A model generated the notes under the pieces. That model worked only from the letters and a program-made list of their open reading frames with translations. It was not told the DNA's origin and did no database searches. Shown here piece by piece: positions 2,652 to 17,289 of a stretch of 54,981 nt of DNA. Source of the stretch: Candidatus Staskawiczbacteria bacterium (GTDB taxonomy: Bacteria > Patescibacteriota > Minisyncoccia > Minisyncoccales > Staskawiczbacteraceae). The translations under genes and the position numbers were made by a program. Location: contig CAILLM010000006.1 in NCBI GenBank assembly GCA_903835075.1, forward strand, positions 1-54,981, written 5' to 3'. Position 1 is the first letter of the stretch, and each line of letters starts with the position of its first letter.

Positions 2652-5393
2652 CTATTTTTTAGATTTGGTTAATTGCCGATTATTTTGCATTTTTGACAAA
2701 ACCTTGGATGTTTCCCTCGGGCGTAGCCCTACGGGCGAGCCAAATACTATTTTTCCACCTTGCTGATCTATAAATACCCTACTGCCTTCTGCAATTTCGT
2801 TGGCAACTATTTTTACAGATAATGGATCTAAAATTAAGCGTTGTATAACTCTTTTCAATGGGCGCGCTCCCAAATTTGAGTCAAAACCTTCTTTAACTAA
2901 TAATTCTTTTGCTTTTTCTGAAATACTTATTTTTATTTCTTTTGTGGCCAAACGTTTTTCAACTTTAGACAACTCTAAATCAACAATTGTTTTGATTTCT
3001 TCTTTTTTGAGGTAATTGAATATAACAATTTCATCAATTCTGTTTAAAAATTCTGGCCTAAAAGAATCACGTAAGGTATCAAATATTTTTTCTCGCATAT
3101 TTTCTCTTTGCACAATTTCTTCTTTATTACTAAAACCAAGTGAAGACATTTTGTTGATGTAGTCGCTTCCCAAGTTTGAAGTCATTATAATAATTGTATT
3201 TTTGAATGACACCAATCTGCCCTTAGAGTCAGTCAATCTGCCGTCTTCAAAAATTTGTAACAAAATATTAAACACATCGGGGTGGGCTTTTTCAACTTCA
3301 TCTAATAACAAAACCGAGTATGGTCTTCTTCGAACTTTTTCAGTTAACTGGCCCGATTCTTCGTAACCAATGTACCCCGGAGGGCTTCCAATTATCTTAG
3401 AAATTGTGTGACGTTCCATATATTCAGACATATCAAGGCGAATCATTGCTTTTTCGTCATCAAATAAAAATTCTGCCAATGCTCTGGCTGTTTCGGTTTT
3501 TCCCACACCAGTTGGCCCTAAAAACAAGAATGAACCCAATGGTTTATTTTCCTCAGAAATTCCTGCCCTAGCTCTTCTAATAGCTCTTGAAATTGCTGAA
3601 ATTGCCTCTTGTTGGCCAATAACTCTGCGGTTTAGAGTATCTTCCATTGTTTCCAATTTTTTGGCTTCTTCAGTAATTAAGCGGGTAACTGGAATTCCCG
3701 TCCAACGTGAAACAACTCTGGCGACCTCTTCTTCGGTAACTTCTTCTTTTAAGAATCTGTGTTCTTTTTGAATTTTAATTAATTTTTGTTCTGTGGCAGC
3801 TAATTCTTTTAATAATTCTGGAATTTTTCCATATTTTATTTCCGCTACTTTTTCTAAATCAGCTTCACGCTGAGCAATTTCGGTTTGATAAGACAAATTA
3901 TCAACTTTTTCACGAATGTCTTTAATTTTGTTAATTAATTCTTTTTCAGCGCCCCATTTCAAACGTAAAGATTTTGATTTTTCATTTAAGTCAGCCAATT
4001 CACGAGAAATTACTTTAAGCCTTCTTTCACTTCCCTTTTCTTTTTTAAGAGCTTGTTTTTCAATTTCCAATTTCATTATTGCCTCATTAAATTTTTCCAA
4101 TTCTTGGGGGTCAGACTCAATCTCTAACCTTAAAGCACTGGCTGCTTCATCCATTAAGTCAACTGCTTTATCTGGTAAAAATCTATCAGCAATGTAACGC
4201 GAGGCCAAGTCCACAGCAGCTTTAATTGCCGAATCTTTAATTTTTACTCCATGGTGAACCTCATATTTTTCTTTAATTCCACGCAACATTGCAGTAGCAT
4301 CTTCAATGCTTGGTTCTTGGACAAAAATTGGCTGAAACCTTCTTTCTAGCGCTGGATCTTTTTCAATATATTTTTGATACTCTCGTAAAGTTGTCGCTCC
4401 AATTGCGCGCAATTCGCCACGCGCCAAAGCTGGCTTTAATAAGTTTGAAGCATCAATTGCTCCCTCAGCAGCTCCTGCCCCCACTAAAGTGTGGAGCTCA
4501 TCAATAAACAAAATATATTTTCCAGCACTTCGTGAGAGTTCTTTCAATAAAGCCTTTATTCTGGTTTCAAATTCTCCACGATATTTTGTACCAGCAACAA
4601 GTGACCCTAAATCTAAAGAAATAACTTCTTTATTTTTCAAAAAATCTGGCACATTTCCCCTGGCAATTCTTTGGGCAAAACCTTCAACAATAGCTGTTTT
4701 TCCAACACCTGCCTCTCCAATTAAAACAGGGTTATTTTTTGTTCTTCTAGAAATTATTTGCATTAATCTTCTAACTTCATTGTCTCTACCAACAATTGGA
4801 TCAATTTTTCCAGCAGCTGCCAGGTTTGTTAAATTTCTAGTATATTTTTCTATTACCTGATATTTTGATTCGGGGTCGGGGTCAGTAATTCTTTCAGTCC
4901 CCCTTATTTGTGACAAAACCTTCATTACTGCTTCATAATCAAGTTTTGAATTCTTTAATCCTGCACCATCAATTCCCGATGGACTGCCAACTAAAAAATT
5001 AATTTTTTCTAAAATGTCTTTAGCGCCGGACTTTGTGTCTATTAAAGCTAAAAACAAATGTTCTATGGAAATAAATTCATCATTCATTTTTATGGCTTCT
5101 TGCCTTGCCCTATCTAAAACTTTTGCCATATCTTGCGTAAGATAAAACTGCCCAAATGCTTGTTGGGCTGCGACTGGTGGAATTCTTAAAATTTGCGCAT
5201 CAACTTTTTTAAGTAATAAGTCGGCATCAACCCCAAGTTTTTGTAAAATTGTAACTACAATTGACCCTTCTTGTGTTAGCAAAACAGACAATAAATGCAA
5301 AGCATCAATTTGTGATTGCCCTTTTTCTTGCGCCAATTGCTGTGCCTGCATTAATGCGTCCTGTGCTTTGTTGGTAAAATTTGCTCCGTTCAT
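2652..5393 (-). CDS. clpB: ATP-dependent chaperone ClpB
   Basis: Clp N domain, two AAA+ modules (GEAGVGKT, GPTGVGKT), GTKYRGEFE pore loop and a long coiled-coil M domain. Start reassigned to the ATG at 5393 (MNGANFT). Confidence 0.95.
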   Translation of the reverse strand: MNGANFTNKAQDALMQAQQLAQEKGQSQIDALHLLSVLLTQEGSIVVTILQKLGVDADLLLKKVDAQILRIPPVAAQQAFGQFYLTQDMAKVLDRARQEAIKMNDEFISIEHLFLALIDTKSGAKDILEKINFLVGSPSGIDGAGLKNSKLDYEAVMKVLSQIRGTERITDPDPESKYQVIEKYTRNLTNLAAAGKIDPIVGRDNEVRRLMQIISRRTKNNPVLIGEAGVGKTAIVEGFAQRIARGNVPDFLKNKEVISLDLGSLVAGTKYRGEFETRIKALLKELSRSAGKYILFIDELHTLVGAGAAEGAIDASNLLKPALARGELRAIGATTLREYQKYIEKDPALERRFQPIFVQEPSIEDATAMLRGIKEKYEVHHGVKIKDSAIKAAVDLASRYIADRFLPDKAVDLMDEAASALRLEIESDPQELEKFNEAIMKLEIEKQALKKEKGSERRLKVISRELADLNEKSKSLRLKWGAEKELINKIKDIREKVDNLSYQTEIAQREADLEKVAEIKYGKIPELLKELAATEQKLIKIQKEHRFLKEEVTEEEVARVVSRWTGIPVTRLITEEAKKLETMEDTLNRRVIGQQEAISAISRAIRRARAGISEENKPLGSFLFLGPTGVGKTETARALAEFLFDDEKAMIRLDMSEYMERHTISKIIGSPPGYIGYEESGQLTEKVRRRPYSVLLLDEVEKAHPDVFNILLQIFEDGRLTDSKGRLVSFKNTIIIMTSNLGSDYINKMSSLGFSNKEEIVQRENMREKIFDTLRDSFRPEFLNRIDEIVIFNYLKKEEIKTIVDLELSKVEKRLATKEIKISISEKAKELLVKEGFDSNLGARPLKRVIQRLILDPLSVKIVANEIAEGSRVFIDQQGGKIVFGSPVGLRPRETSKVLSKMQNNRQLTKSKK
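2714..2735. repeat. GC hairpin in the ClpB C-terminal extension
   Basis: CCCTCGGGCGTAGCCCTACGGG; encodes PVGLRPRE beyond the usual ClpB end. Confidence 0.5.
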
Positions 5394-5501
5394 AGATTTA
5401 TAAATTAGTATTTTAAGATGTTTATTAAATAGTATATGATAATCTGCTCGCAACCATCATTAAAAAAATGGATAAAAGGTTGTAAAATTTGCTCCGTTCA
5501 T
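5374..5501 (-). repeat. 20-bp direct repeat of the clpB start (5374-5393 and 5482-5501); the upstream copy begins a 13-aa mini-ORF
   Basis: ATGAACGGAGCAAATTTTAC occurs twice; 5501..5460 reads MNGANFTTFYPFF-stop. Confidence 0.85.
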
Positions 5502-5561
5502 TTTTGATATTTTTATTTATATTATTATTACGTTCTAATTTATTATTTTAGCTCACTACTC

Positions 5562-5599
5562 ATGATAAAGCAATAGCACTCTCAAGTCAAGAGTGACAA
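5562..5599 (-). promoter_or_regulatory. CIRCE (HrcA operator) overlapping the clpB promoter
   Basis: ATAGCACTC-N9-GAGTGACAA at 5573-5599 versus consensus TTAGCACTC-N9-GAGTGCTAA; TTGACT-17-TATCAT on the minus strand. Confidence 0.8.
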
Positions 5600-5608
5600 A
5601 TCTTATGT

Positions 5609-5638
5609 AAAAAAAGGCGGGTTCTGGTGAGAACCCGC
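5609..5638 (-). terminator. Intrinsic terminator of aroF
   Basis: GCGGGTTCT-GGTG-AGAACCCGC perfect stem with a U-tract on the minus strand. Confidence 0.85.
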
Positions 5639-5650
5639 ATCATAAAAGGG

Positions 5651-6673
5651 CTACATACTTCTGCCAGCGGCGAGAGCAAGAACCCTCAGCTCACTGCAAA
5701 GACGTGCAAAGTCCGAAAACGTCAGCGAATGTGCACCGTCGCATAGGGCCTTTTTGGGATTCGGATGAATCTCAATAATCAACCCATCTGTGTCACCAGC
5801 AACCGCCATCTTAGCATAACTGGGGACATACTGAAACTTCCCTGCCGTGTGGCTTGGATCGGTGATAATTGGCAAATGGGTCAACTGACGCAGAACTGGA
5901 ATTACTCCCACATCAAAGGTGAAGCGCGTGGAATTATCAAATGTTCTAATGCCACGATGGCAAAGAATAACATTCGGTTGGTCTCCATTGCAACGCAGGA
6001 TATAGTCTGCCGCCATCAACCATTCGTCGATAGTGGCTGTAAGCCCACGCTTGAGAAGTACCGGCTTGTGCGCTTTCCCGACCGCGTCAAGCAGCCGATA
6101 ATTTTGCATGTTGCGAGCACCAATTTGCAGAATGTCGGCGTAGCCCGCGATAAGCTGGACGTCTTGTTCGCTCGTCACTTCGGTGACAATAAGTAGTCCG
6201 GTTTCATCACGTGCTTCTGCAAGGATTTTCAAACCTTCCTCGCCAAGGCCTTGGAAGGCAAAAGGAGAGGTTCTCGGCTTAAATGCTCCTCCGCGCAGAA
6301 ATTGCGCCCCGCACTTTTTAGCCAACCTTGCGCAAGCCAATGTTGTCTCTCTGTCTTCCACTGCACAAGGTCCTGCCATTGTCACGAGCTGATTACCACC
6401 GATTTCGATGTTTCCAACTTTCACAACGCTATTGTCCTTTTTAAAGTCACGCGAAGCCAATTTATAGGGCTTTTGCATTCTCACGACTTGTTCCACGTTG
6501 GGCAGAACTTCAAAGACTCCCGTATCCAATTCTCCTGTGTTTGCCCCTAAAACGGCGATGACTGTCCGTTCTGTGCCGATATTCATCTGGACTTCACATT
6601 CGAGGTCTTTAACTCGTGCGATAACTACTTCTATATCTACTGGCTTTGCGCCTTTTCTCATTTCGATTATCAT
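5651..6673 (-). CDS. aroF: DAHP synthase type I-beta with N-terminal ACT/ferredoxin-like regulatory domain
   Basis: AGPCAVE, RGGAFKPRTSP, QIGARNMQN, DPSH and IEIHPNP motifs; N-terminal domain resembles the Thermotoga-type enzyme. Confidence 0.93.
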   Translation of the reverse strand: MIIEMRKGAKPVDIEVVIARVKDLECEVQMNIGTERTVIAVLGANTGELDTGVFEVLPNVEQVVRMQKPYKLASRDFKKDNSVVKVGNIEIGGNQLVTMAGPCAVEDRETTLACARLAKKCGAQFLRGGAFKPRTSPFAFQGLGEEGLKILAEARDETGLLIVTEVTSEQDVQLIAGYADILQIGARNMQNYRLLDAVGKAHKPVLLKRGLTATIDEWLMAADYILRCNGDQPNVILCHRGIRTFDNSTRFTFDVGVIPVLRQLTHLPIITDPSHTAGKFQYVPSYAKMAVAGDTDGLIIEIHPNPKKALCDGAHSLTFSDFARLCSELRVLALAAGRSM

Positions 6674-6725
6674 GGCGGTGTCTTTCGGTTGGTTTGGTTT
6701 GGTTTAATGTTGGGAATGAACTCAC

Positions 6726-6753
6726 AAAAAAGCTCCACTTTTTGAGAGGAGCT
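6726..6753 (-). terminator. Attenuator terminator in the aroF leader
   Basis: AGCTCC...GGAGCT stem followed by a U-tract, between the leader peptide and aroF. Confidence 0.8.
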
Positions 6754-6780
6754 CATTTGAATTTTTAATTTATTTCAGAA

Positions 6781-6858
6781 TTAAATACTCAAATCAACAC
6801 CCCTCGTAGGGAAGCTAAAGTAAAAAAAACAGATTTTGTTTGAGTTAACTTTATTCAT
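6781..6858 (-). CDS. Phe/Tyr-rich leader peptide (25 aa) of the aroF attenuator
   Basis: MNKVNSNKICFFYFSFPTRGVDLSI-stop; the FFYFSF cluster lies upstream of alternative hairpins. Confidence 0.75.
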   Translation of the reverse strand: MNKVNSNKICFFYFSFPTRGVDLSI

Positions 6859-6865
6859 TAAATAT

Positions 6866-6894
6866 AATCTAACAAATTTATTTTGATACGTCAA
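6866..6894 (-). promoter_or_regulatory. Sigma70-type promoter of the leader-aroF transcript
   Basis: TTGACG-17 nt-TAGATT with TGn; the leader ATG lies 7 nt past the -10 box. Confidence 0.7.
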
Positions 6895-6897
6895 GAC

Positions 6898-8100
6898 TTA
6901 TGGCTTTCTTTCTACTAATGTCACATCTATATCTATTTCTTTGCTACCCCTTAAAATATGTAAGGTAACTTTATCTCCCACGTTATAGTTTCTAATTATT
7001 TGTGATAAAGAATTATTGGTTGTAATTTTTTCACCATTAATTTGTAAAATAATATCTTTTTCTTTTATGCCAGCTTTTTGTGCAGGGGAACCAATTGTTA
7101 TTGCTGGCTCTCCATTATTTCCTTTCAAAACAAGCGCACCAGAATCAACCGAAAGCTTATAATCTTTTTTAACTTGCTCGTCAATTAAAATATACCTTAC
7201 TCCTAAAAATGGATACACAATTTTACTTGTTGCAATAACCTGCTGGATATCTTTTTTGGCCATATCAATTGGAATTGCAAAACCAATAGTTTGAGCTCCT
7301 TGTGCCATTGCAGTACTTATACCCATAACTTCACCTTTTAAATTAAGCAAAGGGCCGCCAGAATTCCCAGAATTAATGGCTGCGTCTGTTTGGATAATAC
7401 CTTCTAGTGTTTCCGAAAAAGAGCCCATTTGATCAGAAGCAGAAATTGTTCTTTGCAAACCCGATACTACTCCCACAGAAACAGTATTAGAAAATTGACC
7501 CAAAGCATTTCCAATAGCTATGGCTGTTTGACCAATTTGAATCCCAGACGAATCACCCAAAGTTGCTGGCTTGAACGATGCTCCATCACTTTTTATTTTT
7601 ATCACTGCCAAATCTTGCACTGGGTCTAGTGCCAAAACCTTTGCTGAATATTTTTTACCGTCACTTGTTAGAACCGTATAATCAGCTTTATTGTCAGAAA
7701 CTACATGTTTGTTGGTTAGAATCAACCCATCAACTGAAACAATAAAACCAGAACCTTCTCCAATTTCTTGATAAACTGGCAAATTCTTAGAAATAACAAT
7801 ACTTACCACTGAGGGAGAAGTGTTTCTAGCAACATCAATTATTGATTGCTCATATGAAGAATTAGACACATAGACACTTGGAGACTGGTCTTTTGGTTTT
7901 TGCACTTCTGGAACTTCAAAATATTTTAAAAATTTTTGGGTTTGCGAAGGAAAATACCGCAAAGCGCCCATGCTTGCAAAAAATCCGATAGAACATCCAA
8001 CAACAATCAATACAACAATCACCCAAAAATTTTTTGTTTTTAGATTTGCTATGGTTTTATTTTTTATTTCTTTTAAATTAAACTTTGGTAAATTGTACAT
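6898..8100 (-). CDS. htrA: HtrA/DegP-like trypsin serine protease with PDZ domain
   Basis: GSGFIV, LTNKHVV, DLAVIK, IQTDAAINSGNSGGPL, C-terminal PDZ and an N-terminal TM helix. Confidence 0.93.
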   Translation of the reverse strand: MYNLPKFNLKEIKNKTIANLKTKNFWVIVVLIVVGCSIGFFASMGALRYFPSQTQKFLKYFEVPEVQKPKDQSPSVYVSNSSYEQSIIDVARNTSPSVVSIVISKNLPVYQEIGEGSGFIVSVDGLILTNKHVVSDNKADYTVLTSDGKKYSAKVLALDPVQDLAVIKIKSDGASFKPATLGDSSGIQIGQTAIAIGNALGQFSNTVSVGVVSGLQRTISASDQMGSFSETLEGIIQTDAAINSGNSGGPLLNLKGEVMGISTAMAQGAQTIGFAIPIDMAKKDIQQVIATSKIVYPFLGVRYILIDEQVKKDYKLSVDSGALVLKGNNGEPAITIGSPAQKAGIKEKDIILQINGEKITTNNSLSQIIRNYNVGDKVTLHILRGSKEIDIDVTLVERKP

Positions 8101-8143
8101 ATTTATATACTTCTAAAAATTAAGATTAGTTTCACTTGTCGGC

Positions 8144-9286
8144 TTATTTCATTTCAGAAACAATAAAATCTACTAAATCTTCAGATGCTTTTGGTTTGGC
8201 TAATTTTTTGCAATTTTGCTTCATTTCTTCCAATTTTTTGCTATTTGAAAATAACTTAATTATTGCTTCAACCGGCCTTCTAGAACCAGGGGCTTTTATT
8301 CCTGCTCCTTGTTTTACAACATATTTAACATTGTCTTCTTCCTGCCCTGGAATAATATCATTAAACACCATTGGAAGGTTTTTTGACAAACACTCAGAAA
8401 CTGTCAGCCCGCCTGCTTTTGTTAATATTAAATCTGCAACTGACATATATTCGTCAATATTATCTATAAAATCAAACACCCTTATTGCTGGATAATTTTT
8501 TATTTTGGAATTCTGCAATTTTTCTTGTAAAATCTTATCACGCCCAGCTACAATTATAATTTGCAAATTTTTACTTTTTTTCTTTACGCCTTTAACAATT
8601 TTTAACAAATTACCGTAACTTATTCTCCCGCCTACTATTAATAAAATTGGCTTTGATTTGTCAAAATTTAAATTTTCTATAATTTTATTTTTGTCTGGTG
8701 TTTCGCTAAATTTTTTACTTATGGGAATGCCTGTTATTTTAATTACGTCTCCACTGGTGCCACGTTTAACTAAAGAATTTTTTATGTCTTGGTTGGCAAC
8801 AAAATAATAGTTGACGTCTTCATTGCTCCACAAAGAATGAAACCCAAAATCTGTACAAACATTGGCCGATGGTATGTTTATAATATTTTCTTTTTTAGTC
8901 AGTGATACCAACTGCATAGACAAGGGATTGGTGGAAATAATAAAGTTGGGGTTAAACTCTTCTATAAATTTTACTAGTCTAGATTTTCTGAGTATAACAC
9001 CTGAAATATTGCTCAAATGTTTATATCTGCCTCTGTAATTATAAAAATTATAGATTAATTTATAAAGAATAGGCGTGTTTATTATTGTTTGATTATAAAA
9101 CCAAGGCAAGCCATGCTTGAATATATCAAAGACAAAATCTAAAACATTAATGTTTTTAATTTCTATATCGGGATACATCAAAGCAAAATCTTCGGCGATA
9201 GCATTAGCTGCCGCGCCATGACCAGCTCCAAGAGGTGCATATAAAATTAAGACTTTCTTGTGCCCCAAAGGGTATTTCTTTTCCAT
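8144..9286 (-). CDS. MGDG synthase / UgtP-like glycosyltransferase (GT28)
   Basis: GAGHGAAA, VCTDFGFH, TGIPI, TKAGGLTVSE and PGQEEDN motifs. Confidence 0.88.
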   Translation of the reverse strand: MEKKYPLGHKKVLILYAPLGAGHGAAANAIAEDFALMYPDIEIKNINVLDFVFDIFKHGLPWFYNQTIINTPILYKLIYNFYNYRGRYKHLSNISGVILRKSRLVKFIEEFNPNFIISTNPLSMQLVSLTKKENIINIPSANVCTDFGFHSLWSNEDVNYYFVANQDIKNSLVKRGTSGDVIKITGIPISKKFSETPDKNKIIENLNFDKSKPILLIVGGRISYGNLLKIVKGVKKKSKNLQIIIVAGRDKILQEKLQNSKIKNYPAIRVFDFIDNIDEYMSVADLILTKAGGLTVSECLSKNLPMVFNDIIPGQEEDNVKYVVKQGAGIKAPGSRRPVEAIIKLFSNSKKLEEMKQNCKKLAKPKASEDLVDFIVSEMK

Positions 9287-9326
9287 GCTAGTTAATTATG
9301 ATAGAATTATATAATAAAATCATACT

Positions 9327-9719
9327 ATGAAAAACAATTTACTAAGATTATTTTTAGGTATAACATTTCTATCGGCGGGAATATATAGGATTTTTAATTG
9401 GAATCAGGCTGTTATAGAGTTTTCTAGGCTAAATCTTGATGGTGCCTATTATCTTATATTATTAATTATCTTATTGGAAGTTGTAGGAGGCTTATTACTG
9501 ATATTTAATATAAAAACAAAAGAAGTTCTTTTAACTTTTTCTGTATTTATAACAATTGCCCTAATAACTGCATTTATGGCAGATGGACAAAACATTATTT
9601 CTAATTTTAAAGAATTATTTATTTTTACTCCAAGCCCTACAGACACATTTTTACACTTTACTTATCTGGTAATTATAATCTCACTTCTTGGATCAATAAG
9701 AAAAAATAAACAAATTTAA
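9327..9719 (+). CDS. DoxX family membrane protein
   Basis: LLRLFLGITFLSAG and LEVVGGLLLI; four hydrophobic segments. Confidence 0.75.
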   Translation: MKNNLLRLFLGITFLSAGIYRIFNWNQAVIEFSRLNLDGAYYLILLIILLEVVGGLLLIFNIKTKEVLLTFSVFITIALITAFMADGQNIISNFKELFIFTPSPTDTFLHFTYLVIIISLLGSIRKNKQI

Positions 9720-9788
9720 TTGAACAAATTTTTTGCTTCATTCCAAATATCAGGTTGGTTGTGTACAACCTTCATCCAATACCACCAT
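9716..9788 (-). pseudogene. Orphan 3' end of a homolog of the adjacent glycoside hydrolase gene
   Basis: 9721-9788 matches 9895-9962 at 59/68 nt; it reads WWYWMKVVHNQPDIWNEAKNLFN-stop versus WWYWMKTVHNQPQIWNEAKNLFITK-stop. Confidence 0.88.
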
Positions 9789-9881
9789 GTCGCTCGTTCC
9801 TCGCTCCTTCAAAACCCTCGGTTTTGAATAATTTCCTACACGGGAGGAATTCTTCCTCCCGACCCCTCCTTGAATGGTGGT
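9781..9881. mobile_element. MITE/REP-like composite hairpin element
   Basis: Terminal inverted repeats ACCACCAT (9781-9788) and ATGGTGGT (9874-9881); internal hairpins TTCAAAACC/GGTTTTGAA and CGGGAGGAA/TTCCTCCCG. Confidence 0.55.
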
Positions 9882-9883
9882 TT

Positions 9884-10909
9884 TTATTTTGTGATGAACA
9901 AATTTTTTGCTTCATTCCAAATTTGGGGTTGATTATGAACAGTTTTCATCCAATACCACCATTCTACTCCCCAAAAGTAAAACTTGTCTAACCCAGACGC
10001 CTTAGCAAACTCAACATTTTGCTTAAATATTACTGGGTTCATTGTCTCTGCTTGCTCTTTCAAGGGAACATCATAAAATTGTCCCGAAACCCAAGGCTCG
10101 GCCTGCAGTTCTATACAAAATACTTCTTTACCAAATATTTTGTTAATAATCAAAGCTTTTCTGGAATAATATACTGGAGAGAAAAAAGAATGGAAATAAA
10201 AACCAAAACTATCAGTTATTCTTGTCCATGCTTCTCTGTACATGGTGTTGCCAACTACATCTCCAATTTTAGCTGCCCCAAACCAAGAAGAATATTCACC
10301 AGTATCAGAAACAATAACTTTTCTTGATGGATCTAAAAATTTCACTGTAGCCACCTCTTCTCTTAAAAAATCATTATTTTTATAATACCAATCAGGGCAC
10401 TCGCCAAAATAAAAAAATGGCTCATTTTCAACCTGCCAATAAATTATGGAGGGATTATTTTTGTATCTTTGGACAACTTCTTTTATATAATTTAAAGTTG
10501 CTTGTTTTTCCTGCGTCTCTTGTAATTTACTTGCCCATTTTGGAACATGGCATTCTGGCCACCTTCCGCTTTTCATTCCCACAACATATATAATTTTTAC
10601 ATTTTTCTCTTGTGCTTGAGATAATTGCCAATCAACATCATCAAAATAATATTTATCTTTTTCGCCCTCAATCCAATCCCATTGTGTATGTAATTTTATA
10701 TTTTTTACGCCCAGGTCATTTATTATGGCTGAATAAGCCTCTTTCCAGCTTAAGCCCAAAGACTGAGCCTGCATTTGAGAAAAATCCACACCCCAAGTAA
10801 TGTTTTTTTGGACTGGAGCTTTACCCACAAAAAAATAACAGAAAATAGACGCCAATAAAGCAAATATCGCCAACAATAAAATGCCAAGTCTTTTTAGTTT
10901 TTTTTTCAT
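9884..10909 (-). CDS. Clan GH-A glycoside hydrolase-like protein, membrane-anchored
   Basis: WQVENEP acid/base motif, IELQAEPW nucleophile region, N-terminal TM helix. Confidence 0.8.
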   Translation of the reverse strand: MKKKLKRLGILLLAIFALLASIFCYFFVGKAPVQKNITWGVDFSQMQAQSLGLSWKEAYSAIINDLGVKNIKLHTQWDWIEGEKDKYYFDDVDWQLSQAQEKNVKIIYVVGMKSGRWPECHVPKWASKLQETQEKQATLNYIKEVVQRYKNNPSIIYWQVENEPFFYFGECPDWYYKNNDFLREEVATVKFLDPSRKVIVSDTGEYSSWFGAAKIGDVVGNTMYREAWTRITDSFGFYFHSFFSPVYYSRKALIINKIFGKEVFCIELQAEPWVSGQFYDVPLKEQAETMNPVIFKQNVEFAKASGLDKFYFWGVEWWYWMKTVHNQPQIWNEAKNLFITK

Positions 10910-12232
10910 TTAATTTTTGCGTTCGGCAATTATTTTTTCTATATTATAGGTCCCCTTTTTCTCTATTTCCATAAAACCTTGTATGGCTAATTCAGCCAAA
11001 TCCCCAGAGTTTAGTGAATCATAAAACCATTGCTCTGCATACTTAGGGTTTTCTTGAGCCATACCACAACCAACATGCAACAACCATTTTTTATTAAAAT
11101 CTTCTTGAGAGCCTATTGGCGGAGCCACAATTATGGGCAACCCCAAGCCTGCATAAAAAGAAAGTTCGGAAGGTTTTGTCCATAAAACATCTGTTTCTCT
11201 TAATGCTTCATTGAATGTTTTAAAATATTCATCTGTTGTGATGCCAGATAAAATATGCACCCAACCATCTAATTTTAATTCTTTAATGTTATCTGCATAA
11301 TATTTTCTTAATTCTTCCCTTACACCAACTGCAATAATAAATCTTAGCTTCTTATTCTTTATTTTTTCTTTCAAGCTATTTATTGCTGCCAATGGTATTT
11401 CTTTTTGAGCGCCTGCGCCCCCTATGGAAAACATTATTGTTAGGGGATGATTTGATTTTTCTGGCAACTTACCCAAAGTTGCCTTCACCAAGGGGTTATA
11501 TATATTTCTATATTTTTTATAAGGATCTAAATTTATAAGCCTATGCCTTAAGTCATCTTTTAAAATTTCCAAATCTTCTCCCAAGTTTTCTTTTGGTAGG
11601 GGAAAACCTGTTAAAATTATATTTTTAGGGTCAACACCATAAAGTTTTAACCTGTCACGAGTCCAAGTGTTAGGAGTAAAATATTTAATTTTGCTTTTAT
11701 GCGGTTCTAATGAAACCCATGCCCTTGAGATGTCAGCATCACATATAACGCAATAAACATCATTTGGATACCCAATTGTTTCTGCCATAAAAGACGGAGT
11801 AAAAAAAGTAGATACTATTGGCAAAGGATTTTTTTTAAACCTTTCTATTAAATCCCTACCCCACCCTTTTTTTATAAAACTAAAAATATTTTTTAAAACA
11901 AAATCTGGTTGAGATAAATCTCTTTTAGGATAATATGCTAAAATCTTTTGAAATTTATCTAATATGGAAAACGCTAGGTTACCCAATAATGGGATATTTT
12001 TAAAACGTGAAATAAATTCATACAAAGAACGAGTTTGTTGCCAAAACTTTCTATCTTTTTCTGGAATACCGCTATAATTGTTGGCATTTATTACTCTGCC
12101 ACCAAAAGCCATGCCCCTTAAAGGATATGCTGTTCTTTGATGACCATAGCCCATGTCAGCAGCTATTACCCACGCCCTTCGACTTTGCTCAGGACCTTCG
12201 GCCTTTTTTTGTTTATCCAAATTCATATTCAT
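10910..12232 (-). CDS. GT-B fold glycosyltransferase-like protein (MGDG-synthase-related)
   Basis: MGYGHQR, VICDADI, TGFPL, TKPSEL and GSQEDFN parallel the GT28 motifs. Confidence 0.7.
   Translation of the reverse strand: MNMNLDKQKKAEGPEQSRRAWVIAADMGYGHQRTAYPLRGMAFGGRVINANNYSGIPEKDRKFWQQTRSLYEFISRFKNIPLLGNLAFSILDKFQKILAYYPKRDLSQPDFVLKNIFSFIKKGWGRDLIERFKKNPLPIVSTFFTPSFMAETIGYPNDVYCVICDADISRAWVSLEPHKSKIKYFTPNTWTRDRLKLYGVDPKNIILTGFPLPKENLGEDLEILKDDLRHRLINLDPYKKYRNIYNPLVKATLGKLPEKSNHPLTIMFSIGGAGAQKEIPLAAINSLKEKIKNKKLRFIIAVGVREELRKYYADNIKELKLDGWVHILSGITTDEYFKTFNEALRETDVLWTKPSELSFYAGLGLPIIVAPPIGSQEDFNKKWLLHVGCGMAQENPKYAEQWFYDSLNSGDLAELAIQGFMEIEKKGTYNIEKIIAERKN
12175..12203 (+). repeat. Family A repeat, in frame in the N-terminus of 10910..12232
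   Basis: CCCTTCGACTTTGCTCAGGACCTTCGGCC; encodes AEGPEQSRRA on the minus strand. Confidence 0.75.
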
Positions 12233-12278
12233 TTATTATACATTAAAATTAATAAAAAATTAACAGCACTAAATTACC

Positions 12279-12307
12279 TTGCAACCATTAAAAATCCGTG
12301 GTATTAT
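12279..12307 (+). promoter_or_regulatory. Sigma70-type promoter
   Basis: TTGCAA-17 nt-TATTAT with TGn. Confidence 0.6.
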
Positions 12308-12368
12308 ATTTATGACGTGCACTAAGGAACGCACGCCAACGTCCATTGAAAAACCATCACCCCCTATT

Positions 12369-12809
12369 ATGAAAAACCGACTAACTGCGACAGATATTGT
12401 AGGTGCATACGTATTTTGTTCCGATCCACGCGACCCGCTTCAGCAGGAAGCCATAGATAAATTGATGCCCAAAAACATAGGTGCTTGGGCACCAATAGCT
12501 CTGTTCGGAGGACCAATTGCTTTAGCCCGTCAAGGACCATCGTTAGATCCATGTTGTGAAATAATTTGCCACCAAATCCATTTCGCAGCAAAGAATTTCC
12601 CGAACTTCAAAACAGTTATCTTGATAGGCCATGATTGTGGCTACTATGCTGAGATAACTGAAAAAGAAGTTCTCCTGCCAGAAAAAAGAAATGACATCGC
12701 TGAAGCTAGACGATCCTTGGAGTGCAAGTTAACCGAGCTTGGCATTACAATTGAAATCAGGGCTTTCTTTTACGAGCCCGACGGATCTGGATTCACCGAG
12801 ATCAAATAG
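12369..12809 (+). CDS. Beta-carbonic-anhydrase-like Zn protein (divergent)
   Basis: CSDPR (CxDxR) and GHDCGYY Zn-ligand motifs. Start moved to ATG 12369 because the promoter overlaps the longer ORF start. Confidence 0.6.
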   Translation: MKNRLTATDIVGAYVFCSDPRDPLQQEAIDKLMPKNIGAWAPIALFGGPIALARQGPSLDPCCEIICHQIHFAAKNFPNFKTVILIGHDCGYYAEITEKEVLLPEKRNDIAEARRSLECKLTELGITIEIRAFFYEPDGSGFTEIK

Positions 12810-12837
12810 CCAAAGGGTCGTAAGACCATTCTCATAA

Positions 12838-12864
12838 CCGCAACAACAGTTGCGGATTTTTTTT
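12838..12864 (+). terminator. Intrinsic terminator
   Basis: CCGCAAC-AACA-GTTGCGG followed by a T tract. Confidence 0.8.
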
Positions 12865-12879
12865 ACTTGTATTCGTAGG

Positions 12880-14379
12880 CTATATAAAATTTTTTTTGTA
12901 TTTTTTGTTTAAGAAAAACGTGACTACAATTATGCCAATATATAAAACAACTAGCCAAATTATTGGGACGTTTGTTATGGATTTTGCCATCCATGGTTGT
13001 GAAAATAAATCTATAACCTTAACAAAATAGCTTAATAACACCCAACAAGGAATTGCCACAACAAATCCAAGCAAGCCCGAAAACACCCCCGTCACAGATG
13101 CCACAAACCCAAAAACCATAAGCCAATAAACAATTGGTAAAATTAGCATGTTGGTTATTGGCGAAACAAATGAAACATTACCAAAATTATAAATCATAAT
13201 TGGCAAAGTAAAAATTTGGGCAGCAAGGGTTGTTGAAACAATACCAATGAAATTATTTGCCTTATTATTATCCGAAATTTTTATTAAAAATTTAAAGAAT
13301 CTTTTAATTATGGGTTCTAAATAAACAAGACCTAAAACAGCCAGAAAAGAAAGCTGGAACCCAACATCAAACAACAATAACAGTGGATTTATAAAAATCA
13401 TTATTGCACAAGCCAAGGTCAATAATCGAGAGCTCATAACTTGCCTGCCTAAATGTTGTGATAAAAGAAAAATTATTCCCATAATACCCGCCCTAACTCC
13501 CGAAGGTGGCAAACCAGTTAAAATAACATATGCACAAATAAAAAACACCGCAACATAAAATGCCTGACCACGCCAAAGTCCAATGCCCACTAACAAGGTC
13601 ATAATTATTTCACTTAAAATTACAACGTGAGTGCCCGAAACCGCTATAACGTGACGCAAACCAGTAATGTTTAATTTGCTTTTTAGGTCGGGCGTCATTG
13701 CACCATTGTCTCCCAAAATTGTTCCTTCCATAATTAAACTTTGGGGTGGAGAAAAATTTCTAACAATGCTCTCGCGTAATTTTTGTTTAAAAAACAATAT
13801 CTTTTCATACAAATAAGAAAAAATATTATATTCATGCTTTTGTGATACTATCTCAACCCTTGGGAAAGCCATAACAGAATAAATGCCATCTTTCATTAAA
13901 TAATTCTGGTAATTAAATGTATCAGTATTTGTTGGGACTTCAAGCTTGCCTGTTAGTTTTATTTTGTCTAAATACTGATATTCAGGATAACGTTTTGTTG
14001 TTACTAAAATTTCACTCTCATTTACTTTTACTTTTATCCTCTGGATAGTATCTCTTAAATCTGGTTCCGCGCTGACGATACCTGTTAAAACTACTTGCCC
14101 TTTGCCATTTAATTTGCTTAATTTGTCATTGGCAATATTAAAATCTGAAATTTGTACGCGTAAAATTCCTAAAACCAAAAATAATAAACAAAATCCTACA
14201 ACAAAACTTAATTTTTTAAAGAAAAATGACAAGAAGACAGAAGCAATTCCCAAAACAAAAATCCCCAATACAAAACGCTGGATGATTTCCCCCGCTAAGC
14301 GGGGTCCGCCTAGTGCGGACAGAAATATTCCTGCTATAAATGACAAACAAAGAAAAAATAATGCCTTAGATGGGCTCAT
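12880..14379 (-). CDS. comEC: ComEC/Rec2 competence DNA-uptake channel (no MBL domain)
   Basis: DUF4131 region, GLRHVIAVSGTHV, SGVRAGIM and DVGFQLSF. Confidence 0.92.
   Translation of the reverse strand: MSPSKALFFLCLSFIAGIFLSALGGPRLAGEIIQRFVLGIFVLGIASVFLSFFFKKLSFVVGFCLLFLVLGILRVQISDFNIANDKLSKLNGKGQVVLTGIVSAEPDLRDTIQRIKVKVNESEILVTTKRYPEYQYLDKIKLTGKLEVPTNTDTFNYQNYLMKDGIYSVMAFPRVEIVSQKHEYNIFSYLYEKILFFKQKLRESIVRNFSPPQSLIMEGTILGDNGAMTPDLKSKLNITGLRHVIAVSGTHVVILSEIIMTLLVGIGLWRGQAFYVAVFFICAYVILTGLPPSGVRAGIMGIIFLLSQHLGRQVMSSRLLTLACAIMIFINPLLLLFDVGFQLSFLAVLGLVYLEPIIKRFFKFLIKISDNNKANNFIGIVSTTLAAQIFTLPIMIYNFGNVSFVSPITNMLILPIVYWLMVFGFVASVTGVFSGLLGFVVAIPCWVLLSYFVKVIDLFSQPWMAKSITNVPIIWLVVLYIGIIVVTFFLNKKYKKNFI
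14290..14320. repeat. Family C double hairpin, in frame in comEC
   Basis: CCCCGC-TAA-GCGGGG and GTCCGC-CTAGT-GCGGAC; encodes SALGGPRLAG. Confidence 0.75.
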
Positions 14380-14382
14380 TTA

Positions 14383-15114
14383 TCATTGCCTAAGTTGGCA
14401 ATCTTTAAAATATGATGATATTTTTTTTACTATTTGCTCTACGGTTTCTCGCTCAAATGGTCTAACTTTCTCAAACTCTGGGTCAATAGTTTTTTCTGCT
14501 CTAAAATTTTGCAAATAATACTTTACATCTGGCCCACCTATCCATTTAGCAATATCAATAAACTCTTCTGGTGTGTGCACAGTATTTACAACTGTTGTGC
14601 GAAACTCCCAATCAAAACTGCCTGCCCGCCCTGAGCTTGCCGAATGGGTTTTTAAAAATTCTACACTTTCTTTTATGTGGTCTATGGTAATTCCCTCTAT
14701 CATTAAATTTTTATATGCAGGGTTGTTTTGTGCAGTTTTTATGTCCATTGCCACATAATCAACCATTCTTGCTTCCACTAACTCTTTTAACATTTTTGGA
14801 TTAGAACCATTTGTGTCTAACTTTACTAAAAATCCTAAATGTTTTATTTTCTCTATAAAGCGTGGCAAATCTTTATTTATTGTTGGTTCTCCCCCACAAA
14901 TTACAACACCATCAAGCTGGCCCTGTCTTTGTTTTAAAAAATTAAAAAATTCCTCTTCTTGCATTCTTGGTTGTTTGGCAATTTTTAACGGTAAAACTAA
15001 CTCTGCCGAATAACACCACGGACATCTAAAGTTACATCCAGCCAAAAAAACCACACAGGCAATTTTGCTTGGAAAATCTATTAATGTTGATTTTTGTAAT
15101 CCTGCTATTATCAC
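14383..15114 (-). CDS. nrdG: Anaerobic ribonucleotide reductase activating protein (radical SAM)
   Basis: GCNFRCPWC (CxxxCxxC), GGEPT, KLDTNG and EFRTT; nrdD nearby. Confidence 0.9.
   Translation of the reverse strand: MIIAGLQKSTLIDFPSKIACVVFLAGCNFRCPWCYSAELVLPLKIAKQPRMQEEEFFNFLKQRQGQLDGVVICGGEPTINKDLPRFIEKIKHLGFLVKLDTNGSNPKMLKELVEARMVDYVAMDIKTAQNNPAYKNLMIEGITIDHIKESVEFLKTHSASSGRAGSFDWEFRTTVVNTVHTPEEFIDIAKWIGGPDVKYYLQNFRAEKTIDPEFEKVRPFERETVEQIVKKISSYFKDCQLRQ
14618..14648 (-). repeat. Family A repeat, in frame in nrdG
   Basis: CCCATTCGGCAAGCTCAGGGCGGGCAGGCAG; encodes HSASSGRAGS. Confidence 0.8.
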
Positions 15115-15116
15115 GG

Positions 15117-15139
15117 TCGTGTGAGCGGGGCGAACACGA
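15117..15139 (-). repeat. Family A-like hairpin abutting the nrdG start
   Basis: TCGTGTTCGCCCCGCTCACACGA on the minus strand. Confidence 0.55.
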
Positions 15140-15214
15140 TTGCTTCGGAAATTAGGCCGTGGGCATATCTATACATTTAGGCCGAATTTACGCTGAACAC
15201 CTTACTCTATTTAA

Positions 15215-15244
15215 TTAAGCTACTTCTTGTTGGTAACAACTTTC
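15215..15244 (-). pseudogene. Orphan 3' end of a Cys-rich family paralog
   Basis: Reads ESCYQQEVA-stop, matching the C-termini EACYQQEIV-stop and EQCYQQEII-stop of the two full paralogs. Confidence 0.75.
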
Positions 15245-15245
15245 G

Positions 15246-15264
15246 TCCTTCGGCAGGCTCAGGA
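15246..15264 (+). repeat. Family A repeat (intergenic)
   Basis: TCCTTCGGCAGGCTCAGGA. Confidence 0.85.
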
Positions 15265-15275
15265 TTCGGCCCCAT

Positions 15276-16997
15276 TTATACAATCTCTTGCTGATAACAG
15301 GCCTCGCAGTAAACTATTTCCGGTCTGTCGGGCGCATATGACGTTTCGAATTCATTGGTGCAACCTTCTTTCATGCAATGCCTATGCCAAAGCTTAATGG
15401 GGTTACGCCATGCAAACCTTGCATAATGCCTACAATTCTGACAAATTTGCGGTAGGGGTATATTAAGTTTTTTATAAAATTGAAGTTCTTGATTGGTAAT
15501 TTTAAATACTCCCGCACATTCATGATTGCATGCACCTGCATGAACGCAACTTATGACTTCTTTTAATATATTGTCATCTACATTTTTAGCATCATCTGGC
15601 AATTCAGAGCCTAATTTTGTAACATTAAATTTTTTGTTTTTGGCGTCTTGCCATATAAAACCATGATGTTCTGCCTCTTCTTTTGTAAAAGGGAAAAAAT
15701 CATTAGCAAACGACTGGTTATAAGCTATGGGACTCATTTCTGCTGGGAAAAATTCTCCATATTTATAAATACAACCATTTTTGTCTACATAGGGCATGTC
15801 ATTCATATGTTGGATAATTTTTGGAACAAGAGTCTCGTATTCTTCTTTTGTGTATTGTTTATTCAAAATACAATACTGTTTGTTACGCAAACTTACACAC
15901 CCAAACAATGAAGACGAATTTTGAACACAATAATAGCAATAAGATAGATTCGAAATAGTTGAGTAACACTGTGACGAAAAGCTAATATTGTATGCTCCAA
16001 TTCCCACTATAACCGATTCATAAATTAGTTCACTTCCCTCTCCAAAACCACTATGGTCATAAGAGTCTTTTGCAGGTCCAATACTAAAATTATGGCAATA
16101 TTTAACATTTTCACCATTAATAACTCTCCAACAGTATTGAGCATTTTTTGAATCTTTGATGTAATCTCCCAAAACATTAGCATTGTGCCTGCCGTGCATA
16201 AATTTATTCGGGAATTTTATCCAAAAACTAATGGCCTTATTTCGCATTTCCTCAATATTTTTTCTAGAGCTCAAATTAAATTCTTTTAACTTCTGAATGT
16301 ATTCTTCTTTTGAGTAGGCTTGGTTAAAAATATGATATGCCTTGCTTTTTAAATTAATACATCCAAAACAATTGTTACACCCTGTGCAATTCTTAGAAAA
16401 AATTATATCATTGCAATCTTCACAATCTACTGAATATAGCACCTTATAGCATTTAACCAAATTAACAGAATCATAACAAAGTTCTGACTCAATAAACATA
16501 TAACAGTCAAAAATATCTTTAGAGTTTGCTCCCCAAATAGAATAAGCAGAATTTTCCACAAAAGAAGCTGCAAAAGTGAGATAGCAATCTTTTGGGTCTG
16601 TGGCATTCATGCAATAGTCGCTTCTTACGGGATTGGTAAGAGACCTAGACATTAATGGAACTTGATAAAATAAATCTTTAAATTGCTCAAAAAATGGTCT
16701 TGAAAAATCATAGTCTCTGCCATATTGCATTGGATCCCAAGAATCAGAATACCATTCTGCCGTATCTAGCACTTTTACTGGAGAATCTTCATGGTAATTA
16801 GAAAAAATCTCTTTCCCATGAATATCTTTTTTTCTAAAAAGCCTCCATTCATTTCTCCACGCAAAGCGACGCTGTGTCCTACAATCTGGACAAAACGTTG
16901 GTGCCGGTACTTTTATTTTTTCGTAGAACACAAAATCATCGGGCTCAATTACAAAGTCCTTTTTACAATTTTGACATGTTTTAACTTCTTGCTCCAT
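15276..16997 (-). CDS. Cys-rich protein with N- and C-terminal zinc-ribbon motifs, function unknown (paralog 1)
   Basis: CQNC..CPDC N-terminus, central periodic Cys repeats, CQNC and CEAC C-terminus; paralog at 46732..48459. Confidence 0.88.
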   Translation of the reverse strand: MEQEVKTCQNCKKDFVIEPDDFVFYEKIKVPAPTFCPDCRTQRRFAWRNEWRLFRKKDIHGKEIFSNYHEDSPVKVLDTAEWYSDSWDPMQYGRDYDFSRPFFEQFKDLFYQVPLMSRSLTNPVRSDYCMNATDPKDCYLTFAASFVENSAYSIWGANSKDIFDCYMFIESELCYDSVNLVKCYKVLYSVDCEDCNDIIFSKNCTGCNNCFGCINLKSKAYHIFNQAYSKEEYIQKLKEFNLSSRKNIEEMRNKAISFWIKFPNKFMHGRHNANVLGDYIKDSKNAQYCWRVINGENVKYCHNFSIGPAKDSYDHSGFGEGSELIYESVIVGIGAYNISFSSQCYSTISNLSYCYYCVQNSSSLFGCVSLRNKQYCILNKQYTKEEYETLVPKIIQHMNDMPYVDKNGCIYKYGEFFPAEMSPIAYNQSFANDFFPFTKEEAEHHGFIWQDAKNKKFNVTKLGSELPDDAKNVDDNILKEVISCVHAGACNHECAGVFKITNQELQFYKKLNIPLPQICQNCRHYARFAWRNPIKLWHRHCMKEGCTNEFETSYAPDRPEIVYCEACYQQEIV

Positions 16998-17017: not shown

Positions 17018-17041
17018 TCAGGTTACCATATGGTAACCTGA
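17018..17041. promoter_or_regulatory. Perfect 24-bp palindrome (candidate operator or recombination site)
   Basis: TCAGGTTACCATATGGTAACCTGA, 20 nt upstream of the Cys-rich gene ATG. Confidence 0.7.
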
Positions 17042-17058
17042 GCTCTCAGGGCACTCTT

Positions 17059-17250
17059 CTATTTTTGCAAATCTAACATGAGCTTTTTTATGTTAACATC
17101 ATTTTTGAAGATTATAAAATTTCTGCCCATTTTGGTCGCTTTTATATTCCCCCGCCAAATTCTCTTAAGCACAGACACCTTGCTAATTCCCAACTCTTTG
17201 GCTAACTCAGTTGTTGTATAAAAATTATTCTGAATTATTTTATTGCTCAT
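17059..17250 (-). CDS. Small helix-turn-helix DNA-binding protein (excisionase/HTH_17-like)
   Basis: FYTTTELAKELGISKVSVLKRIWRGNIKATKMGRNFII fits the MerR/Xis-type winged HTH. Confidence 0.85.
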   Translation of the reverse strand: MSNKIIQNNFYTTTELAKELGISKVSVLKRIWRGNIKATKMGRNFIIFKNDVNIKKLMLDLQK

Positions 17251-17261
17251 GTCTCGCTTAC

Positions 17262-17289
17262 TGTCAGGCTACCATATGGTAACCTGACA
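17262..17289. promoter_or_regulatory. 28-bp palindrome with one mismatch, second copy
   Basis: TGTCAGGCTACCATATGGTAACCTGACA, 11 nt upstream of the HTH ATG. Confidence 0.7.

Follow-up and report, generated by a model that had tools for sequence, protein, structure and literature searches.

Short hairpin inserts with displaced gene ends in a Staskawiczbacteria contig as likely insertions of tiny terminus-replacing elements

The window analysed here, the whole 54,981-nt stretch of contig CAILLM010000006.1 (C6) from a Candidatus Staskawiczbacteria bacterium, belongs to a genome of 794 kb with 35% GC that is 98% complete. It carries clpB, genes for DAHP synthase, a protease, glycosyltransferases, a DoxX-family protein and a glycoside-hydrolase-like protein, comEC, a radical-SAM gene, and a Cys-rich gene. 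Three of these genes (clpB, the hydrolase gene, and the Cys-rich gene) are intact and are each accompanied by a second, displaced copy of one of their ends, which a short insert separates from the working gene (Table 1). The three inserts are non-coding, measure 31 to 96 nt, and contain no open reading frame (ORF). An earlier sequence-only reading had described these gene-end remnants and proposed homology-facilitated illegitimate recombination (HFIR) during natural transformation as their source. Our analysis confirmed the remnants and led us to a different origin: a tiny mobile element without a protein gene has likely inserted at each of the three sites independently, supplying a new terminus and displacing the resident one.

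Read on one strand, which is the coding strand for 3′ ends and the template strand for 5′ ends, the sites have a common layout of working gene end, spacer, hairpin body, and displaced end. Next to every remnant lies a copy of a repeat that recurs in the genome, and the three bodies represent three repeat families, numbered 1 (hydrolase), 2 (Cys-rich), and 3 (clpB), of which families 2 and 3 keep the layout at other loci. The view that the remnants adjoin hairpin repeats thus stood with respect to the repeats but not fully with respect to the hairpins; only the hydrolase insert folds better than shuffled sequences (z −4.9), whereas z is 0.4 for the Cys-rich segment and 0.0 for the clpB segment.

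Table 1. Features at the three duplicated gene ends and in their surroundings (window coordinates; a dot marks no strand)
Feature	Position	Strand	Evidence
clpB, intact, 913 aa	2652..5393	-	Pfam Clp_N, AAA, ClpB_D2-small; start agrees with 21 relatives
clpB working 5′ end (first 20 nt)	5374-5393	-	20-nt duplicate
AT-rich spacer of clpB insert; new leader before working start	5394..5446	.	sequence
Family-3 body: weak hairpin, conserved ends	5447..5483	+	6 genome copies
Displaced clpB 5′ end (MNGANF), now start of a 13-codon upstream ORF	5482..5501	-	exact 20-nt duplicate
CIRCE-like operator (5573-5599) and sigma-70-like promoter, upstream of clpB remnant	5562..5599	-	inverted repeat common to relatives
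DoxX-family gene; stop codon overlaps that of hydrolase remnant	9327..9719	+	Pfam DoxX
Displaced hydrolase 3′ end (WWYWMKVVHNQPDIWNEAKNLFN, then stop)	9716..9787	-	compared with working end
Family-1 body: purine-rich linker, hairpin 1, conserved hairpin 2, small hairpin, closing stem	9789..9871	-	nhmmer E 4e-23
Antisense arm, 10 nt complementary to gene across junction 9961/9962	9872..9881	-	sequence pairing
Glycoside-hydrolase-like gene, intact; working 3′ end 9884-9961	9884..10909	-	Pfam Glyco_hydro_2_C E 3.5e-8
comEC (Competence domain), neighbour by conserved gene order	12880..14379	-	domain match
Displaced 3′ end of Cys-rich gene (ESCYQQEVA, then stop)	15215..15244	-	recurs as variant of EACYQQEIV, then stop
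Family-2 insert: short imperfect arm (15268-15275) and REP-like mini-hairpin (15245-15267)	15245..15275	-	repeat comparison
Cys-rich 573-aa gene, multicopy family, intact; working 3′ end 15276-15305	15276..16997	-	paralog ends

The last 25 codons of the hydrolase gene (9884-9961) recur at 9716-9787, 96 nt past the stop codon, with 87% identity over 68 nt; up to the last codon, five synonymous and two replaced codons distinguish the remnant from the working end, and the remnant runs directly into the downstream neighbour gene. The family-1 body between them is an 83-nt multi-hairpin sequence with the arm in front. It matched no Rfam family at gathering score (the best overlap, with Clostridiales-2, reached 23 bits against 58.6), and a known structured RNA family was rejected on this ground. 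At the Cys-rich gene, whose product has no Pfam or NCBIfam match, the last nine codons recur 31 nt past the stop codon, with EACYQQEIV changed to ESCYQQEVA. Just upstream of this gene, at 17018-17287, two copies of a 24-nt palindrome flank a 64-aa ORF that resembles a small helix-turn-helix protein.

At clpB, nucleotides 5374-5393 are repeated exactly at 5482-5501, 108 nt upstream, and this 20-mer occurs twice in the whole genome. The operator at 5573-5599, which we labelled by the CIRCE consensus, is together with its promoter a host regulatory site outside the insert; the inverted repeat also lies upstream of clpB in many insert-free relatives. Operator and promoter are now parted from the real start by the 13-codon upstream ORF and the hairpin (5440-5599), an example of a possible change in regulation. 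A homologous clpB insert was found in one of 21 relatives (G017; G000 is the window's own genome, the other G numbers are relatives, and L numbers are collected loci), where the two end copies differ at three synonymous sites. Other palindromic inserts stand at the clpB start in G022, G015, G012, and G009 (L106, L108, L113, and L117, respectively), and in three of these the end of the insert supplies a GTG start codon.

Whether the remnants were assembly artefacts was judged from Logan contigs and relatives. Logan contigs with no differences span the clpB remnant together with its gene, and the Cys-rich remnant together with its gene. For the hydrolase insert, coverage is shared between two Logan contigs with a 30-nt overlap within the repeated body, and no single contig spans the insert; the insert recurs in five other genomes. 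The Logan coverage comes from one study, and three of its four runs may be the window's own source. As separately assembled contigs and relatives reproduce the remnants, an artefact was rejected.

We scanned 725 ORFs of at least 300 nt for displaced ends, with the expectation taken from swapped flanks. In the stop-anchored scan nine genes scored at least 30 against 0.67 expected, both 3′ remnants of the window included; seven of the nine are remnants, one is like a tandem paralog, and one is like a chance match. The start-anchored scan gave two genes at this score against 0.5 expected, with clpB at 33, and three against 1.5 at a score of 25, where clpB and C7:29805 are remnants. Two further short 5′ remnants were recognised by eye. 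The genome thus holds about 11 protein-gene remnants among 725 genes, eight of the 11 away from the region of the three sites. Gene-end remnants are rare but real. Artefact and rarity had been named as grounds for refutation, and of the two only rarity applied. The 3′ remnants outside the window were associated with one of the three bodies in four of five cases by regular expression and in the fifth by nhmmer, whereas only nine of the remaining 718 gene ends had one (P 3e-7 by Fisher's test for the four of five); the family-1 expression missed two of the three genome copies. The predicted enrichment of repeats at remnants was therefore observed genome-wide.

The hydrolase gene was present in 37 of 41 genomes, and the insert lay at the identical base in six of the 25 genus genomes carrying the gene, each a different species. 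The neighbour after the remnant differs among the carriers, being DoxX here and a glycosyltransferase-like gene in four others; by eye, a DoxX-like neighbour follows the hydrolase gene also in the insert-free G004 and G007. Carriers were scattered on two trees, one from the upstream part of the gene and one from clpB, and the carriers G000, G022, and G009 have insert-free sisters (G024, G018, and G010). With 12 of 24 and 10 of 19 inner branches open in these trees, gains and losses are indistinguishable.

The exact 29-base core of family 1 matched more than 118 stretches of a genome collection, and the records sharing it belong mostly to Patescibacteria lineages. It occurred in no viral contig, and a phage origin was rejected. 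As to expression, no RNA dataset was listed as holding the sequence. DNA was fetched for 80 of the matching stretches and pooled with the genus loci; after removal of duplicates there were 95 cores (79 canonical, eight circularly permuted, and eight other), of which 76 copies were analysable. Sorted by eye, 36 of the 76 follow a tRNA or tmRNA, and the other 40 comprise 28 protein termini, eight tRNA-type remnants with no intact tRNA called nearby, and four unresolved cases. The protein termini, 24 at 3′ ends and four at 5′ ends, involve about 17 genes, which from their peptides we take to include rpsI, rpsG, rpsJ, rplK, fusA, gyrB, and uvrA, and, at 5′ ends, pth, rplP, and dnaX. In the eight permuted bodies (L138, L151, L164, L172, L173, L181, L186, and L200) the strands of hairpin 1 are swapped. 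At G000:C8:111480-111560, L057, L125, L135, L187, and L198, which show tRNA-type remnants with no intact tRNA nearby, the bodies may close larger inserts, one of them beside a phage-like ORF.

The arm of family 1 was examined in the same 76 copies. An arm score of at least 10 was obtained in 44 of them, compared with 5% of 316 shuffled pairs, and a flanking direct repeat exceeded the threshold in 47, compared with 0.3% of shuffled ones. Among 30 protein pairs, the working end is the better match for the arm in 22 and the remnant in two, with ties in the other six. All 23 arms of at least 7 nt end within 3 nt of the junction; the arm of the G022 hydrolase copy reaches up to 17 nt. Microhomology at the junction of body and remnant amounted to 0 nt in 23 and 1 nt in seven of 30 family-1 junctions, those of families 2 and 3 being inspected by eye only, and the junction base is the same in six hydrolase copies and in four Cys-family copies, which need not all be independent events. 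The bases of hairpin 1 vary, yet stay paired in 69-75 of the 76 copies. In several copies the arm is a long fold-back starting from the stop codon, with silent variants specific to the host, and the predicted fold would allow pairing between a guide and a cleavage site. Relative to skew, seven of 13 copies lie with and six against, and a strand bias of the IS200/IS605 type was rejected for these 13.

The sequence-only reading took the remnants as marks of terminus replacement, and the two ends are indeed diverged coding ends. The 30 pairs (28 protein-terminus copies, with G021 and G023 added by hand) show 118 synonymous and 94 replacement differences in 348 codons, with a pS of 0.66 and a pN of 0.11. 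A freely decaying duplicate would not yield these values, and therefore both ends were coding until recently. A template of a diversity-generating retroelement was rejected, the differences being synonymous and not adenine-specific; the only reverse transcriptase gene is on a different contig, and no body of the three families was seen beside it. When G022 was compared with its insert-free sister, the identity was 0.92 in the 120 nt before the junction, 0.67 in the working end, and 0.80 in the remnant, so that the foreign tract begins at the junction. G021 and G009 agree with G022 in direction, their sisters being too distant for more. A native origin of the remnant is thus supported in G022, G021, and G009, and not in this genome. 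These comparisons are best read as showing a working end that comes in with the element, followed by later exchange between the copies.

For family 2, a regular expression gave 61 matches in the genome, of which only three have a remnant, a result that speaks against palindromes being generic join points, as had been suggested. The strict pattern gave only three matches in 26 genomes, one of them unrelated to a remnant, and among the loci examined a DNA search yielded no further Cys remnant. The same-junction remnant stands after two paralogs on contig C2 and after one in G017, so that family 2 occupies one same codon at three of 11 paralog ends in the genome and at one of the 28 ends inspected in relatives; a 7-nt arm matches the working end in the copies of C2 and G017. 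A depth-2 contig in which 15244 is linked directly to 15307, as in a Cys-family end with no insert, was not counted as an excision, since at 85% likeness it probably comes from another organism. Family 3 has six copies in the genome, five of which adjoin a gene-end remnant by eye, and occurs also in G017 and in metagenome loci. Its loose metagenome pattern gave 29 loci, from which four duplicates and two short rows were dropped; among the 24 rows scored, eight are by eye true-looking members with a remnant, mostly at 5′ ends. At one of the metagenome loci, a dnaX-like start (L300), the whole unit stands in tandem repeat.

We then looked for proteins that could act on such inserts. No transposase was found among the 16 window proteins scanned, in agreement with the sequence-only reading, which had advised a search for RAYT and GIY-YIG proteins elsewhere. 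The genome encodes six small GIY-YIG proteins and one long one, one RAYT-like protein, four serine recombinases, one tyrosine recombinase, and one reverse transcriptase. The recombinase genes lie on contigs other than the window, and inspection of their 400-500 nt flanks by eye revealed no body of the three families. The RAYT-like gene (Y1_Tnp) scored 31 bits against a RAYT cut-off of 80 and is flanked by its own, different palindrome; IS110 was dismissed, as PF01548 had no match in the genome. Of the six small GIY-YIG genes, two have a tRNA on one side and, on the other, a copy of the 3′ end of that tRNA that is split by a palindrome. Across the genus, where 50 of the 96 listed matches were read, a duplicated terminus was seen by eye at 23 of the 50 loci, nearly always with a palindrome at the remnant, and an automated repeat score gave 14 of 30 against 7%. 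The termini are mostly tRNA 5′ or 3′ ends; two are protein 5′ ends, with the clpB layout and an ORF inside. An endonuclease gene inside the insert is therefore present in other cassettes of this genome and genus and absent from the three window inserts. The family-2 repeat precedes one GIY-YIG gene of this genome. By analogy of layout, a small GIY-YIG nuclease is the most likely candidate for a helper of the elements, a proposal that we rate at somewhat less than even; the sole solved relative found is an uncharacterised UPF0213 protein. At L365, L366, L374, and L368, GIY-YIG genes lie between inverted repeats just after a start codon, with the repeat end giving a new GTG start. A cluster at G000:C2:64548-68973 contains a GIY-YIG gene, tRNA-Gln, a 526-aa reverse transcriptase with a C-terminal extension, a serine recombinase, and a methyltransferase-like gene, and is possibly a retron-like defence island.

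We consider it probable that the inserts are terminus-replacing, protein-less mobile mini-elements that act through a cut at fixed structural positions. The mobile unit would consist of replacement end, arm, and body, and would travel as folded single-stranded DNA, with competence as a plausible carrier into the cell. Insertion would probably depend on a nuclease supplied from elsewhere, with cuts at the arm-stem base and just past the closing stem. The body would be connected through its 3′ end to the resident terminus, always at one base, whereas its left side would be resolved through pairing with the replacement end, at the junction or close to it. New targets would likely arise by fold-back copying of a gene end beside a body. 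The gene would stay whole because the element brings a spare gene end, and only insertions near an end would survive because only those leave the gene whole. That the antisense arm acts as a true guide is a possibility to which we give rather less than an even chance; it may instead be a fold-back product that marks only the left end of the element. More tentative is the idea that family 1 is a self-programming, protein-less single-stranded DNA element with a constant folded body, whose arm is copied from the target and which one helper nuclease can insert, together with a spare terminus, at any gene end. If that is true, nature would have in family 1 an integration system that is guided by DNA and can be retargeted, and that also exchanges the termini of proteins and tRNAs among species of Patescibacteria. 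A literature search of open-access scope found no prior description, and supplements of RNA-motif surveys may list the bodies.

Several observations weigh against the proposal of mobile mini-elements. One old insertion followed by many precise losses may be compatible with the trees. No excised circle, same-strain empty site, or enzyme activity was observed, and none of the Logan joints listed skips the hydrolase insert, contigs being prone to drop rare variants. The link to a helper goes by layout only, because no family-1 or family-3 body was found near GIY-YIG genes at the 50 loci read. Family 3 shows no visible antisense arm. Concerning the two ends, the 30 pairs include the mis-parsed L133 and L139, the related genomes are not independent, and remnants were partly recognised by peptide likeness, which biases the differences towards synonymous ones. 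The comparison of end origin gave ties in G023 and G041, and in this genome it is the working hydrolase end that is nearer to the three closest insert-free relatives (0.70, 0.80, and 0.83, compared with 0.67, 0.71, and 0.76 for the remnant). The two ends are identical or nearly so in G023, L185, L199, L044, and the window clpB, and such pairs fit local copying or conversion.

Among the alternatives, passive homing by transformation needs no dedicated nuclease. RecA crossovers would replace an empty allele by an element-bearing one, with long homology upstream and the remnant as a short second arm, and the antisense arm would be kept matched by template-switch correction. The remnants of G041 and G021 are mosaic in this sense, identical to the working end over the first 53 nt and different thereafter, and derived changes at the remnant start are shared between hosts (L068 and the C8 copy of this genome, as well as insertions in the T-loop of tRNA remnants). 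Passive homing does not explain, however, how a body with one fixed end first reached about 17 protein genes and many tRNAs; the foreign tract in G022 begins at the junction and not upstream, and a synonymous divergence near 0.66 is high for RecA exchange. Even with comEC in 24 of the 26 genus genomes, and with Saccharibacteria described as naturally competent through comEC in the cited part of PMC10633639, we regard passive homing as unlikely. Scars of local duplication or replication slippage at hairpins, which are passed on and decay, or attL/attR scars left by integrase islands that have shrunk, would account for the near-identical end pairs in some copies and for the long perfect fold-backs from the stop codon; eight bodies do close a longer insert after a tRNA, and recombinase genes are at hand in the genome. 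Against such scars stand the low pN/pS of about 0.16 in remnants that are mostly open to the in-register stop, and the recurrence of one body at many unrelated targets, which differs from site-specific integrases as presented in the cited part of PMC4383910. We find this explanation improbable.

The HFIR explanation, in which foreign alleles enter through one homologous and one microhomology junction, with palindromes favoured, near comEC, agrees with the diverged coding alleles at the two ends and with the repeat found beside every counted remnant. The three window remnants also lie within 10 kb of comEC (P 0.0015, a post hoc value). The junctions speak against it: microhomology of at most 1 nt in all 30, the same junction base in six species, and an antisense arm that HFIR leaves unexplained; moreover, most repeat copies are without a remnant. 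The finding of three of 11 remnants within 9.8 kb had a P of 0.058 by simulation. Of the 24 genomes in which comEC was found, 22 have it at a distance of no more than about 4 kb from the hydrolase gene, five of them carriers and 17 non-carriers, and its proximity is therefore incidental, likely a coincidence of gene order. HFIR is largely refuted because the junctions are fixed, and we hold it to be very improbable.

Some further features of the window were recorded. A weak Phe_leader match at 6724-6846, upstream of the DAHP synthase gene (29.5 bits, gathering score 55), is possibly an attenuator. GC-rich palindromes lie in frame inside comEC, the radical-SAM gene, and ftsZ (14285-14311, 14620-14645, and 21690-21726). 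An element at 15112-15150, with several copies genome-wide, ends in the GTG that starts the radical-SAM gene; in the relative G004 this start is a plain ATG.

Terminus-replacing mini-elements would be a way for selfish DNA to persist in genomes with almost no spare space, by entering the conserved end of an essential gene and paying with a replacement end. By moving short foreign termini into genes for ribosomal proteins, replication, and chaperones, such elements can cause errors in annotation and in gene trees and may alter regulation. The 80-aa GIY-YIG proteins borne by cassettes offer an experimental handle on an abundant, unexplained gene family of the Candidate Phyla Radiation, and if the antisense arm picks the site, family 1 would be a compact programmable integrator.

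Elements that restore the gene they enter are known: the e14 prophage restores icd, and integrase islands at the 5′ end of dusA reportedly restore their target gene as well. As in our inserts, a regenerated gene and a displaced fragment mark the ends of integrase islands and prophages, which target the T-arm of tRNA genes and protein termini; these islands carry their integrase and are subject to a 2-kb floor in Islander, as the cited part of PMC4383910 has it, whereas the inserts here have no integrase, are far shorter, and share one body among many unrelated sites. HFIR, as outlined in the cited part of PMC6382021, likewise replaces resident DNA by foreign DNA in a competent cell, but the junctions here are fixed, lack microhomology, and have a conserved element beside them. 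Hairpins are common to our elements and to IS200/IS605 and REP/RAYT, where a short sequence 5′ of the hairpin can pair with the last four bases of the element (PMC5934647 and PMC3733652, in the parts cited). The 4-nt guide of IS608 makes target choice by pairing a precedent for the family-1 arm, and the cited part of PMC5934647 describes no replacement terminus; unlike those systems, TnpA is absent here, the RAYT-like gene has a different palindrome, and the strands split seven to six. By analogy, the system may best be likened to terminus-replacing endonuclease cassettes, with the reservation that the window inserts are without an enzyme gene. The cited part of PMC3630166 describes mobile endonuclease ORFs that make gene hybrids in atp6 of Allomyces macrogynus and in atp6, atp9, cox2, and nad3 of Glomus. 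There too a foreign terminus is in frame, the native terminus is displaced downstream, the native end is nearer to insert-free relatives, and GIY-YIG is among the enzymes. Those fungal elements carry their endonuclease gene and measure about 0.5-1 kb (PMC3630166, same part), whereas the elements described here are bacterial, non-coding, and 30-200 bp long, occur at 5′ ends too, use one body across targets, and in family 1 possess an antisense arm.

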